Source: a virus
Reading direction: 5' to 3' (one strand)
Virus genome (UHGV): UHGV-0134783
DNA length: 29,685 nt
Positions 16,294 through 19,711 of this stretch are shown piece by piece. Within the stretch, counting starts at the first letter, position 1, and every line of letters starts with the position of its first letter. A program made the translations under genes and the position numbers. The notes beneath the pieces are model-generated. The model did no database searches. It saw only the letters and a program-made list of their open reading frames with translations, and was not told the origin of the DNA.

Positions 16294-16602
16294 TCAGGCC
16301 CCCCTACGCTTCCTATACCGGTCAATCATCGCCACCGCAGAACCCCCACCACGGCCACCAGACGCCACATCAACCGAATACCTATCCAACATGCCCATAA
16401 AAGCCTTCACATGAGCACGAAGCGAAGCCACCAAATCCGCGCGACCCTCACGCCACACCACATCATGAATCACCGCAGCATCCATAAGAAACAACCACTC
16501 CTCATCCGACACATACGGCGCGCGACTGTCCTCACCCCACACACGCCACCAACGACGCGTCTCCCCACACCAATCGTGTCCCTCAGGAAGCTCAGGCTGC
16601 AC
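16294..16602 (-). CDS. terS: terminase small subunit (start uncertain: longest ORF extends to GTG 16665, 2 nt from the cos site; GTG 16602 behind GGTGGTGAG preferred)
   Basis: First gene after the cos site and immediately before terL. The N-terminal extension KYLPFVVLSVCRLFVLVVSVV of the longest ORF is hydrophobic and lacks an SD. Confidence 0.55.
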   Translation of the reverse strand: MQPELPEGHDWCGETRRWWRVWGEDSRAPYVSDEEWLFLMDAAVIHDVVWREGRADLVASLRAHVKAFMGMLDRYSVDVASGGRGGGSAVAMIDRYRKRRGA

Positions 16603-16666
16603 AACACTCACCACCAACACAAAAAGTCGACAAACAGACAAAACCACAAAAGGGAGGTATTTCACT

Positions 16667-16677
16667 AAGCCGTACGA
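16667..16677. other. cos site: AAGCCGTACGA, the reverse complement of the 11-nt 3' cohesive-end sequence TCGTACGGCTT recalled for P. acnes phages; physical genome ends
   Basis: Exact 11-mer found precisely between the HNH endonuclease gene and the small terminase. Reverse complement of 16651-16666 gives AGTGAAATACCTCCC as the virion left-end sequence. Confidence 0.7.
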
Positions 16678-16728
16678 GGTCTTGCACGGGTGTGCAGGGG
16701 GTGGTCCCGGTGGGGGTTGGCGGGTTTT

Positions 16729-17031
16729 TCACCATGGAATCAATGTTTTTGTGGTTTGTTGTTGGAAACTAATGTTTGGTTCACTGCGATTGCCTTTGCT
16801 TCTGTTGCATGTTCTGCAGATGATTTGCCCGTTGTCGAGGGTGTTGAGTCCTCCGCGGCTGACGGGTGTGATGTGGTCGGCTTCGGGGCTGGTTGGCAGG
16901 TCGTGTGTGTCCCAGGCTATCTGGGCTCCGCAGAGTGGGCATTCGGTTTGGCCTTGCTTGCGTGCTTGGGTGATGAGTCTTGCCCGCCAGCGTCGGTGGG
17001 CTTGGCTGGCTGTGCGGTTGGTGCGTGCCAT
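16729..17031 (-). CDS. HNH endonuclease (packaging-associated, adjacent to cos)
   Basis: 100 aa. CPLCG...DHITPVSRGG...NGQIICRTCNRSKG is an HNH motif with a zinc-binding Cys pair. ATG at 17031. Ends 52 bp before cos. Confidence 0.85.
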   Translation of the reverse strand: MARTNRTASQAHRRWRARLITQARKQGQTECPLCGAQIAWDTHDLPTSPEADHITPVSRGGLNTLDNGQIICRTCNRSKGNRSEPNISFQQQTTKTLIPW

Positions 17032-17107
17032 GATGTGTCTGTTCCTCGCCTAGCCCTGTACTGGTCTTATTTGCCCCTCTAACGGCCTGGAATCGTCTGG
17101 GGGTATG

Positions 17108-17149
17108 AATACCCTACCGATGCCCTGCTGATCGATTCTGGGGGCTGTT
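17108..17149. promoter_or_regulatory. composite motif site A: TGGGGGTATGAATACC (17108-17123) + CTGATCGATTCT (17138-17149); 77-118 bp upstream of HNH on the minus strand
   Basis: The same two motifs recur at 18709-18743, with the ATCGAT-containing motif inverted, and in degenerate form at 19733-19754. Confidence 0.4.
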
Positions 17150-17559
17150 TTGTTCGTTTGAGGGGGTGTTCTGTTTGTGTCGGGGTGGTTGTTTTTTCCA
17201 CTACCCCCCGGCATGTGAGAAAGATCACATCGCCCCCCAGCTGTGTCAAAAGAGAAGGACACGGAAGAAAAATGGGGGTGGGTGTGTGTTCGCGTTTCAA
17301 GGCTTAGCGCCTAGCGCTGAAGTACACAGGCTAAGCGGGAACACCTTCAAAGTTTTTAAAGTCTTCTACATATAATATACACTTTAAGTCTTACCCGGTG
17401 TTAAGGGTGTTAGCGTGACACGCCGTACGCCTTCAGCCGAACACGCCAAGCATAAAAGGGACACGGGTGTAAGAGTGTGGGGAGTGTACAAACCGGGAGC
17501 GTGCGACCGGTGGTACACGAGACACACGGCGAAAGTCCATCGGCGCTGATGGTAAAAGG

Positions 17560-18050
17560 TTTCTCTTCTCCCCTGATGAAGAAAAGAAGAGAAGAGAGAA
17601 AGTACCAAAGAGAGTAGAGAAGTAAAGAAGTTAACCCTTTAACTCTTCTAAAACTTTTATAACTTATAAGCTTTAAGACTTATAGGTTATAATATTAAAG
17701 TTTAAGACTGATGGTTAATTTTAAGTACTTAAAGTCTTTAAAGTATCATAGTTACTTTAAGTGTTTAACTCTTTAAGTCTTAAACACTGATGTTAAGTTT
17801 ATATCCTTAAGCGCTAAGTCCTTAAGGTTTTATACTTAACTTAAGTGTTAAGGTTATATATTTACTTTAAGACTTTAAAGCTTTTATAGTAACTTAGATC
17901 CTTAAGGGCTAAGCCTTGAAGGTTTTAAAGTTACTATAAAGTACCTAAGACTGATGCCGAGCCCTTGAGGGGGCTCGGTGCTAAGCGTTAAGGTCTTAAG
18001 GGCTTAAGGGCTTAGCACTAAGCCTTGAGGCTTTTAAGTCTTTGGTAGAC
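17560..18050. repeat. AT-rich island densely packed with TTAAG / CTTAAG / TTTAAGACT / TTTAAGTCT short repeats (candidate replication origin / protein-binding array)
   Basis: Visibly far lower GC than the rest of the genome. TTAAG-type motifs occur every 10-20 bp. No credible ORFs. Confidence 0.6.
17961..17995. repeat. 35-bp direct repeat copy 1 with GC hairpin (CCGAGCCC-ttgagg-GGGCTCGG)
   Basis: CTGATGCCGAGCCCTTGAGGGGGCTCGGTGCTAAG. Near-identical copy at 18490-18523. Confidence 0.7.
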
Positions 18051-18489
18051 TGATGGATGTAAGGGTGAAAGCCGCGTCAGCGGATTTCGGCCTTGCGTCC
18101 AGCTGGCTACCTGTCCAGCCTATCATATGCCACCTGGGATGAGTCAAACTGGTGGATTTGGCTCTATAGGCGGGTTTGAGGGGTGTAAACGGGTGTTTTT
18201 GGTGGTAAAGGTCCAAAAATTAAACCTAAACTTTTCCTTAAATTTTCTTAGAGTCTTGTAACCTTTACAGGTGGTTAAGGCTGAAACCCCTAGCCAGAAC
18301 GGATTTCACCCCCGAACAGCTGTCACACTTTACTCCTGTGTCCTTTCCTAACACGCTAGGCCCATCAGTGCTGAGGGTGTTCCCTCAGGCTTTCGAGTAC
18401 TCGTCGCTGAGGCTCCTCGTACTCTCAAGCCTTCCCTGATGGCGTGTACCCCTTTCAGGGCTGTGCCTGATGAACTGAGCCTGCTCGGG

Positions 18490-18523
18490 CTGATGCCGAG
18501 CCCTTGAGGGGCTCGGTGCTAAG
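18490..18523. repeat. 34-bp direct repeat copy 2 with GC hairpin
   Basis: CTGATGCCGAGCCCTTGAGGGGCTCGGTGCTAAG, one G shorter in the loop than copy 1. Confidence 0.7.
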
Positions 18524-18708
18524 ACCTTAAGTACTTAAGTTAACCTTAAGGTGTGAAGGCTGATGTCCCCCCTTCTTTCTTTTACCGTGTCCTTCTTCCC
18601 CCCACGGTATCCAACACTGTCCACATAGTTGAGGCTTAGCTAACCAGGATAGGGGTTGATGATCTATGCCGAGATGGTTGATCGTGTATCGGGCTCTGGG
18701 ATGCGTCT

Positions 18709-18743
18709 AGAATCGATCAGAATTGCTTGGGGGTATGAATACC
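18709..18743. promoter_or_regulatory. composite motif site B: AGAATCGATCAG (18709-18720) + TGGGGGTATGAATACC (18728-18743), upstream of the early gene block
   Basis: Shares an identical 16-mer with site A plus the 12-mer in opposite orientation. Confidence 0.4.
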
Positions 18744-18865
18744 TAGCCCCCACCCTGTAAGGCGCTCCTAGGCGTACCCCTGAAGCTTTAAACGGCATTT
18801 CTGGGCTACACCCTTCATGCCAGATTGGAAGAGTGGCCTCGAGAGTGCACACTAAGCCAGGGGGA

Positions 18866-18881
18866 TGTGATACATCTCACA
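18866..18881. promoter_or_regulatory. TGTGA-N6-TCACA palindrome (CRP/GlxR-family binding-site consensus) ~180 bp upstream of the first early gene
   Basis: TGTGATACATCTCACA has perfect 5-bp arms. A TTGACA hexamer lies at 18987-18992. Confidence 0.3.
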
Positions 18882-19059
18882 CACCTAGATGATAGATCTT
18901 ATGTCTCAGCTCGGCGCCTTGACTCGCTAGATCATCTGTCACACCCGACACACCCCATGAAACGCTCAACCGGTTTGAGCGCAACCTTGACAGTGGGTCA
19001 CAGCCCACACACTCTAGAAACCACAACAACCCCCACAACCACCGAAAGGAACATCACTC

Positions 19060-19368
19060 ATGGATGGCACACTCATCACACCATCATTCACCAGCCTCTA
19101 TGGGCAGACAGAAATCGACCCGCTCAGCCTCCACAGCCTCACCGGAAACCATTCAGACGACATCGATCTCGATATGGTGCGCCGCATGTACCACGCTAAA
19201 GTACAAGAAGCCATACGACTCATCCGACCCCTGTGGACTGTCACCCGCGACAGCGCCGTATACGGAGACTGTGACTGGCGCCACCTATCCGAGAATGAGG
19301 CCGAGGAGCTCCACGATCTCATCGACATGATCGACGTAGACGCCATCCTCGCTGAAGCTATACGATAA
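19060..19368 (+). CDS. early protein, hypothetical (paralog of next gene)
   Basis: 102 aa, acidic. SD GAAAGGAAC 8 nt upstream of the ATG. Confidence 0.7.
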   Translation: MDGTLITPSFTSLYGQTEIDPLSLHSLTGNHSDDIDLDMVRRMYHAKVQEAIRLIRPLWTVTRDSAVYGDCDWRHLSENEAEELHDLIDMIDVDAILAEAIR

Positions 19369-19399
19369 AAACCATCCACACACCAGAAAGGAACCCGTC

Positions 19400-19711
19400 A
19401 TGCAAAAGATCGCCGACCACTTCACCCAGCTCTACAGCCCCGCCAGCTACGACTGCCCTGAGCCTTTCGACCTGACACGCCTCGAAAACCTCCCCTGCGA
19501 CCACATGGATTTTGAGGGCCTCGCCGAAACCTACCGGCAGCATGTGGAAGCCGAACTTCATAAGCTACGCCCCAACACGTTCATCGCCACCGATGGCACC
19601 GTGTTCAGCCATGACGAGTGGAAGCCACTCACCAGTGAGGAAGCCACGCAACTCTACTGGAACGTGACCCGCATCAATGTTGGCCAACTCCTCACCCTGT
19701 GTGCCCGATAA
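19400..19711 (+). CDS. early protein, hypothetical (paralog of previous gene)
   Basis: 103 aa. Same CCAGAAAGGAAC ribosome-binding context. Shares FTxLY, D..D......Y...V......LRP, T.D..V....W..L[ST]..EA..L and a C-terminal L....R with the 19060 gene. Confidence 0.7.
   Translation: MQKIADHFTQLYSPASYDCPEPFDLTRLENLPCDHMDFEGLAETYRQHVEAELHKLRPNTFIATDGTVFSHDEWKPLTSEEATQLYWNVTRINVGQLLTLCAR

Follow-up and report, generated by a model that had tools for sequence, protein, structure and literature searches.

The large noncoding region of the phage genome

The hexamer CTGATG is repeated in the large noncoding region of the virus genome UHGV-0134783, a stretch of 29,685 nucleotides (nt) that is referred to here, at its full length, as the window. 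A megablast search with positions 17000-19100 matched 231 Propionibacterium/Cutibacterium acnes phage (Pahexavirus) records with 80-95% identity on the minus strand, and the matched coordinates lay at ~27.0-29.4 kb of roughly 29.5-kb genomes. Matches on the minus strand and near the record ends indicate that the window is one Pahexavirus genome, rotated and reverse-complemented. The right terminus of phage pa28 mapped exactly onto window position 16667. Structural and lysis genes lie on the minus strand from 16665 downward, while the early genes, which include those for a Cas4-like nuclease, a DnaB-like helicase and a Toprim primase, lie on the plus strand from 19060. The following features delimit the noncoding region:

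16667-16677, no strand assigned: right genome end (cos); deposited genomes end in the 11 bases TCGTACGGCTT, present here as their reverse complement
16729-17031, minus strand: HNH endonuclease gene (Pfam HNH, E = 2e-11), which separates cos from the noncoding region
17032-19059, no strand assigned: large noncoding region, with the HNH gene and the right cos end on one side and the first early gene on the other
19060-19368, plus strand: first early (right-arm) gene, from the list of open reading frames (ORFs), assigned to phrog_919, on the strand of the motif and with homologues in C. acnes phages only

Deposited relatives carry this region annotated as noncoding, except for a few short and mutually inconsistent gene calls. 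A noncoding region of >1 kb was described in C. acnes phages in 2012, and a putative origin was placed there from a GC-skew reversal and an AT-rich drop (PMC3448167). In the window, the GC content dropped to 0.30 at 17600-17999. The GC skew of the plus strand was positive over ~16.6-18.4 kb (1.8 kb, HNH gene included) and negative elsewhere, across both arms and regardless of gene orientation. Within ~16600-18400, GGGTGT, TGATGG and other G/T-rich words changed strand as well. C. acnes phages are unusually uniform and are leading candidates for the phage therapy of acne. To our knowledge, their sole large noncoding region has been taken to contain the origin as well as early and late control signals, and no element had been defined in it.

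CTGATG is an exact and strand-specific word

An exact search found 10 copies of CTGATG on the plus strand and a single one on the minus strand within 17546-18565. The first-pass annotation had reported these counts and this strand bias correctly, and its coordinates needed revision: the copies given at 17583, 17717, 17796 and 17962 were placed 9-11 nt too high and three others 2 nt too high. The array, at a distance of 0.88-1.9 kb from the right cos end, precedes the early operon and shares its sense orientation; the spacings between consecutive plus-strand copies are 27, 135, 79, 164, 99, 386, 31, 23 and 70 bp.

In 5000 dinucleotide-preserving shuffles of 17546-18567, the chance expectation was 0.11 copies and the maximum 3, and only 0.3% of dinucleotide-preserving shuffles contained any hexamer at ≥10 copies. 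The first-order Markov expectation on 17400-18600 was similar (0.12). No other hexamer of the noncoding region was as frequent or as strand-asymmetric as CTGATG. All 18 one-mismatch variants stayed at background, with 0-2 occurrences each, and the pentamers CTGAT and TGATG were each about as frequent as the full hexamer. An alignment of 18 site classes confined the information to the six core positions, the flanking positions holding <0.55 bit with the exception of position -6 (0.95 bit), where a preference for T reflected the TTAAG-rich context. With the mismatch variants at background and the flanks devoid of information, a degenerate or extended motif was ruled out; a word recognised exactly, or in single-stranded form, is more in line with these data than a degenerate duplex-binding site.

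The density of CTGATG was 9.8 per kb in the array versus 0.82 per kb on the coding sense strand. Outside the noncoding region there were 26 copies, 24 of them within modelled ORFs and mostly on the sense strand. The 21 sense-strand coding copies matched the number expected from synonymous-codon shuffles (19.3 +/- 3.5), which led us to reject genome-wide selection on the word, and 17 of them shared the frame xCT-GAT-Gxx. The hexamer is therefore not equally frequent elsewhere in the genome, and its coding copies reflect codon usage. The 20 copies of the left arm are oriented opposite to the array.

Core sites are conserved while peripheral copies turn over

Conservation was analysed in 80 IMG/VR loci anchored on the HNH protein, which yielded 75 distinct full-length regions with a median identity of 83% to the window. 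This set replaced an initial IMG/VR set that had been fetched by a motif-containing 20-mer and was biased for the sites at 17951 and 18490. The copies of the window, with their frequencies among the 75 relatives, are:

17546-17551, plus strand: CTGATG, variable; present in 23% of relatives, most others having TTGACG or CTGACG
17573-17578, plus strand: CTGATG, conserved; 96%
17708-17713, plus strand: CTGATG, conserved (TAAGACTGATG); 93%
17787-17792, plus strand: CTGATG, conserved; 89%
17951-17984, plus strand: CTGATG opening the first 34-nt module; hexamer in 95%
18050-18055, plus strand: CTGATG, conserved (GTAGACTGATG), within the structured element; 99%
18363-18368, minus strand: CATCAG, the single reverse copy; 84%
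18436-18441, plus strand: CTGATG, conserved; 95%
18467-18472, plus strand: CTGATG, variable, in an indel-rich stretch; 17%
18490-18523, plus strand: CTGATG opening the second 34-nt module; hexamer in 100%
18560-18565, plus strand: CTGATG, partly conserved; 68%, with CTGATA as the chief variant

Three copies occur in the longer context AGACTGATG (17705, 17948 and 18047), as previously noted. Seven of the sites were intact in 89-100% of the relatives, versus a median of 56-68% for background hexamers. The number of copies per genome ranged from 4 to 13 with a mode of 10, and 71 of 76 genomes had 7-11 copies; CATCAG was found 0-3 times. Relatives also carried copies where the window has none, namely at ~18656 in 39 of 76 genomes (TTGATG in the window), at 18371 in 24 of 76 (CTGAGG in the window), at 17845 in 18 genomes, at 17395 in 6 and at 17907 in 5. 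CTGATG sites were more conserved than their own flanks and new copies had arisen by point change. The combination of conserved core sites, peripheral gain and loss and a near-constant total is the signature of selection on the word itself.

The reverse copy at 18363 was replaced by a forward CTGATG in seven relatives. In a fold allowing Watson-Crick pairs only, CCATCAG (about 18361-18368) is the exact reverse complement of CTGATGG (18436-18442), across two hairpins; as the flip of the reverse copy in these seven relatives shows, the two words need not pair. A hairpin at 17561-17599 holds the copy at 17573 in its loop, with CTCTTCTC on one side and the GAGAAGAG portion of a 24-nt polypurine tract on the other. 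This pure tract, AAGAAAAGAAGAGAAGAGAGAAAG at 17579-17603, faces a polypyrimidine run and belongs to a 160-nt block (17560-17720) that was nearly invariant in the 75 relatives, with a conservation far higher than the mean hexamer conservation of the noncoding region (0.52).

Searches for more distant relatives with the HNH, primase and gp45-like proteins gave only relatives of at least 77% identity or homologues below 60% identity, and a terL scan of bacterial genomes returned three irrelevant loci only. Altogether, these data support that the array is a directional signal and not compositional noise, as the first-pass annotation had proposed: the motif is exact, strand-specific and limited to the noncoding region, and its copies are kept in the relatives.

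Motif-hairpin modules bound a natural deletion

Part of the array is organised in 34-nt modules, in which CTGATG is followed by a GC hairpin (CCGAGCCC-TTGAG-GGGCTCGG) and then by TGCTAAG. Two identical modules (17951-17984 and 18490-18523; repeat families D12 and D19) form direct repeats that flank a 505-bp segment. The variable AT-rich part of some relatives contains another one or two modules, arranged as CTGATG-CTGAGCC-TTGAA-GGGCTCAG, and the stems of these paralogous modules (CTGAGCC...GGCTCAG) differ by compensatory C:G to T:A changes. Each genome has 2-4 copies of CTGATG that are followed immediately, on their 3' side, by a conserved GC hairpin. For the 36-nt stretches after the copies, the folding energy was -8.9 versus a background of -6.0 kcal/mol, a difference that was driven by the modules and computed on non-independent samples.

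Phage PAS50 has a deletion of almost 500 bp in its noncoding region (PMC3094311). We found that this deletion corresponds exactly to the DNA between the two modules, leaving one fused module and four copies of CTGATG. A deletion bounded in this way indicates that the modules act as recombination substrates, and the viability of PAS50 with four copies indicates that about half of the array is dispensable for plaque formation. The loss of ~500 bp also points to a place where cargo can be inserted in engineered phages.

A structured element surrounds the copy at 18050

An alignment of 60 sequences revealed a structured element, of RNA or single-stranded DNA, around one of the most conserved copies:

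18044-18182, plus strand: structured element (RNA or single-stranded DNA), from the 60-sequence alignment

The 39 predicted pairs of this element were standard in 99.8% of the alignment cells. Seven pairs had changed on both sides (for instance A-U/G-C, C-G/G-C and C-G/U-A, in 24-25 sequences each) and six more alternated with G:U. The covariation score was reached by 0 of 500 shuffles, and sliding the partners by 1-3 columns lowered pairing to 29-50%. Its numerous G:U pairs would become A:C if the opposite strand were folded, indicating that the element works as a single strand of plus polarity. The CTGATG at 18050 lies within its invariant basal helix (GGUAGACUGAUG with CAGCUGGCUACC). The apical stem occurs as two main haplotypes, and the whole element is absent from the viable phage PAS50.

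No Rfam 15 family was recognised in this sequence, the best matches being generic hairpins with 10-28 bits at gathering thresholds of 38-97 bits, and a search for tRNA genes found none. A hammerhead, whose core contains CUGAUGA, was rejected: only 2 of the 10 copies read CTGATGA and no Rfam hammerhead was found at E <= 1 over 16500-19500. A C/D-box k-turn was also ruled out, as there were no Rfam matches. A full-text literature search for CTGATG together with 'phage' returned nothing relevant, and PMC3448167 does not mention CTGATG. No earlier description of the array, of the motif-plus-hairpin module or of the structured element was found in the literature searched.

How the word may be read

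The comparison of relatives argues that, in the control region at the right end of C. acnes phage genomes, CTGATG is a cis element that is maintained by selection, exact and specific in its orientation. How it is read is a more tentative matter. A short exact word of strict polarity, with irrelevant spacing, redundancy and turnover, points to a reading on one strand or to a machine that moves along the nucleic acid. Our preferred reading, to which we give a probability of about 0.3, is that the motif is read single-stranded on the early-sense strand, most likely in the form of CUGAUG within a structured RNA, either an early leader or a noncoding RNA. The plus strand on which it would be read is locally G-rich and carries the early operon in sense, and the operon starts 500 nt downstream of the array in the same orientation. 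In a long structured leader or noncoding RNA running toward the early genes, the repeated CUGAUG would be a linear element recognised by a factor that binds or processes RNA, part of the array forming modules of the 'linear motif + hairpin' type, comparable to boxA-boxB. We infer that the plus strand is transcribed across the cluster and that a protein or RNase reads the hexamer. There is a precedent in Cluster A mycobacteriophages, which transcribe their right-end region from Pleft into abundant, stable and processed noncoding RNAs (PMC5712189) and whose primase is homologous to that of the window (29-40% identity). The early-sense orientation, the single-stranded element at 18044-18182, the word-hairpin modules and this precedent together favour an RNA reading. 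The protein-binding or processing sites suggested in the first-pass annotation are also possible if they are reiterated and read on one strand, which is compatible with the plus-strand-specific structure.

Several observations weigh against an RNA-borne signal. PAS50 is viable with four copies and without the element at 18044-18182, and this element might function as single-stranded DNA and not as RNA. A promoter scan of the region was at chance level, transcriptome data for these phages were not found in the literature, and no RNA-binding protein was recognised among the early genes with Pfam and PHROGs, most of these genes being of unknown function. On 47 Watson-Crick helices of the consensus, deviations of the G:T type (601) and of the A:C type (524) were balanced, which indicates that strand-specific structure is local; together with alifold z-scores that were mixed between strands, this left a plus-strand RNA structure across the whole region unsupported. 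The predicted unpaired probability of the hexamer was 0.040 versus a background of 0.081, although such thermodynamic prediction is weak evidence in an AU-rich sequence.

Two other readings, both rather unlikely, retain some weight. In one, the array is a Chi-like polar signal read on the DNA by a helicase-nuclease of the host RecBCD/AdnAB type entering at the exposed right cos end; co-oriented copies near the end would be recognised before the early genes, and degradation would give way to recombination-dependent replication. Such arrays have a precedent in the cos phages LLS and MD8 (PMC12315714). As with signals read by translocases, the word is short, exact and asymmetric, has no flanking consensus and is irregularly spaced; as with Chi, it is co-oriented (10 to 1), 0.88-1.9 kb from the right end, at which a helicase-nuclease would enter. 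The redundancy apparent from the four copies of PAS50, the turnover of positions at a maintained copy number and the flip of the reverse copy into the majority orientation in one group of relatives are equally in line with it. However, the strand that has its 3' end at the right terminus reads CATCAG, and every Chi known to us is G-rich. In addition, a literature search for a Chi of actinobacterial AdnAB found none, the HNH gene stands between the end and the first copy, the coding DNA of the right arm shows no enrichment, and seven sites are conserved in position beyond the need of a number-dependent signal, several of them being tied to hairpins. The narrower claim that the array is the Chi-like regulatory word of Cutibacterium AdnAB or RecBCD, with the non-G-rich CATCAG on the 3'-ended strand, is more doubtful still. 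In the other reading, which we hold to be about as unlikely as a Chi-like signal in general, the copies are duplex DNA-binding sites of a phage or host protein at an origin or control region, around the AT-rich segment of the putative origin, acting as iterons, as polar barriers to forks or transcription, or in a stoperator-like way with CTGATG half-sites. The region is the published candidate origin, with its GC-skew reversal and AT-rich drop (PMC3448167), and it contains other repeats of the DNA type (nine CTTAAG, two GGGGGTATGAATACC boxes and three AAGGACACRG in both orientations) as well as an operator-like inverted pair, CCATCAG-NN-CTGA(T/G)GG, at two places. Moreover, the equivalent region of Cluster A phages has seven co-oriented stoperators and undergoes deletions by recombination between copies, as in PAS50. 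This reading has to accommodate that only 6 bp are conserved, with neither degeneracy nor flanks, that the spacing is irregular (23-386 bp), that ordinary binding needs no strict single orientation and that the intergenic gaps of the arms hold no copies. The same 6-bp length, lack of flanking consensus and spacing speak against the iterons that had been proposed initially, as far as the classical type is meant. Furthermore, no repressor, initiator or helix-turn-helix protein was recognised with Pfam and PHROGs, where most early genes are of unknown function, and the first two early proteins are strongly acidic.

The remaining probability is shared among micro-ORF starts, defence readings, chance and mechanisms not considered here. 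Translation signals, in which the ATGs would start micro-ORFs or TGATG would couple a stop to a start, are improbable. TGA overlaps ATG in every copy, and TGATG is found 11 times versus 0.57 expected (17400-18700). Yet at most sites the majority of relatives lack an ORF with a start codon that ends at the TGA, the exceptions being 17845, 18050, 18436 and 18467 with a short one of 3-33 codons. The ORF downstream of one site varies from 1 to 79 codons among relatives, and the obligatory C at position 1 is unaccounted for, so that the earlier suggestion of micro-ORF starts finds no support. As had been stated, the ATG frames lack a Shine-Dalgarno sequence; their length in the window is 2-29 codons, and the 29-codon ORF at 18050 overlaps the helix that evolves by compensatory changes. 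Slightly less probable again is a role in restriction or defence, either as a one-way orientation that avoids head-to-head cleavage or as a decoy. Type III sites are exact, asymmetric and ≤6 bp long, PstII recognises CTGATG (PMC8259958, PMC2790903), and CATCAG is of the BREX-site form. Against this, the word is enriched and not avoided, AGCAGY is the site of the one C. acnes system known to be active (PMC8989293), and the opposite orientation of the 20 left-arm copies means that head-to-head pairs exist. Least probable of all is that the copies have no function and are leftovers of segmental duplication or of a local G/T-rich strand composition, to which the presence of several copies in paralogous repeat families (D6, D12 and D15) and the strand switch of other G/T-rich words would belong. 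The hexamer stayed exact while the paralogous flanks diverged to about 70-76%, and the sites are conserved above their flanks, gained by point change and expected at 0.11 copies in shuffles; the conservation and turnover data have already largely refuted this view.

Other elements of the region

Additional repeats were detected in and around the noncoding region. A 24-nt box, GAAT..TGGGGGTATGAATACC, which contains the palindrome GGTAT-GA-ATACC, occurs as two direct copies that are 88% identical (17090-17113 and 18720-18743). These boxes bracket the noncoding region, one near the HNH gene and the late side and the other near the early side, and they may be operators of two divergent transcription units. 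The decamer AAGGACACRG occurs three times in highly conserved blocks, at 17255-17264 on the plus strand and in reverse at 18336-18345 and 18585-18594. Its outer pair lies within a 30-nt inverted repeat that brackets the array and shows no covariation. A long-range helix closing the array (17253-17282/18567-18596) was rejected, with many A:C cells and no convincing covariation. The palindrome CTTAAG was found 9 times versus 1.2 expected (17600-18560) and TTAAGG and TTAAGT 8-9 times; these words form a variable, indel-rich AT core.

A TATAAT at 17371-17376, ~170 nt upstream of the array, lies inside an AT-rich block (17350-17450) that is >93% conserved; each of its positions was kept in 80-100% of the 75 relatives, five of the six in at least 90%. 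It is a candidate -10 element of an early (plus-strand) promoter or, on the other strand, of a late promoter. CTGATG itself was discarded as a -35 or -10 hexamer, the partner hexamers being at inconsistent distances by eye and the promoter scan at chance level.

The first two early genes (19060-19368 and 19400-19711, plus strand) are paralogues, 27% identical, that belong to phrog_919 and occur only in C. acnes phages. Their products are small and strongly acidic, with 20 and 16 D+E versus 8 K+R, a profile that is also that of the DNA-mimic or anti-defence proteins at the leading end of other phages. Finally, a terminase fragment 92% identical to that of the window phage was found in SRXN01000178.1, a low-coverage contig of 409 bp from an Ensifer sp. 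assembly, which is most likely skin-derived contamination of that assembly.

The hexamer array under purifying selection, the 34-nt module that mediates deletion and the strand-specific structured element constitute the first concrete, testable parts of this region.

Comparison with known systems

The array is best filed as a reiterated polar cis-element in a phage control region. Arrays of short repeats near genome ends are known from phage T7, with its SRL and SRR heptamers, and from phage P1, whose pac site has seven TGATCA/G hexamers. As here, these are short direct repeats clustered next to the packaging end. However, they are compact, occupying tens to about 160 bp, and directly border the cut site, whereas the CTGATG array is spread over 1 kb and is separated from cos by 0.9 kb, HNH gene included.

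The lambda nut site combines a linear boxA element with a boxB hairpin, and the CsrB sponge RNA carries about 18-22 CAGGAUG-like motifs. The modules at 17951 and 18490 resemble nut sites in that a short linear word stands beside a hairpin, upstream of a long operon. This nut-like form, with the word followed by a conserved hairpin whose stem shows compensatory changes, was seen at 17951, at 18490 and in the extra modules of relatives. With CsrB the array shares its many copies of a short word, although their density is lower and the noncoding transcript is only proposed. Unlike in both systems, most copies of CTGATG are not beside a hairpin, their predicted accessibility is not elevated, and no N-like or CsrA-like protein is known for C. 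acnes phages.

The recognition site of PstII, 5'-CTGATG-3', is the identical hexamer, exact, asymmetric and recognised in an orientation-dependent manner (PMC8259958, PMC2790903). PstII comes, however, from Providencia, the sole C. acnes system known to be active recognises AGCAGY, and the phage enriches the word. Avoidance of Type III sites, as in T7 and EcoP15I, was discarded, given the AGCAGY system and the presence of sites in both orientations in the genome.

Phages LLS and MD8 have 20-32 co-oriented Chi sequences near their right end, and RecBCD enters at the end left free by the terminase (PMC12315714, 2025). These arrays are likewise irregularly spaced and consist of many redundant copies, but they are made of the known G-rich octamer of the host and extend over many kb, genes included, while the CTGATG array is confined to noncoding DNA and places CATCAG on the 3'-ended strand. 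If a Chi-like role were true, CTGATG would be the first regulatory word for an actinobacterial break-processing enzyme. The array does not have the classical form of origin iterons: an AT-rich segment is present, but the repeat has 6 bp, not ~17-22 bp, and is irregularly spaced.

Cluster A mycobacteriophages (L5, D29 and StarStuff; PMC5712189) have the same layout, in which structural genes are read rightward while a noncoding region close to the right cos end is the starting point of early genes that are read leftward. They also have a homologous primase, a co-oriented cluster of asymmetric sites and deletions by recombination between repeat copies. Their stoperators are 13 bp long, degenerate, bound by a known repressor and scattered in intergenic gaps genome-wide. 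The word of the C. acnes phages, in contrast, has 6 bp, is exact, is confined to the noncoding region and has no recognisable repressor; with neither a shared 13-bp consensus nor a scatter through intergenic gaps, it was not assigned to the stoperator class. Transcription of the right-end region of Cluster A phages follows the early direction and yields structured, processed RNA whose ORFs have at most ~30 codons; for the region described here, such transcription is proposed. If an RNA-borne signal were true, C. acnes phages would have a noncoding RNA comparable to the abundant and toxic ones that mycobacteriophages make from their right end.

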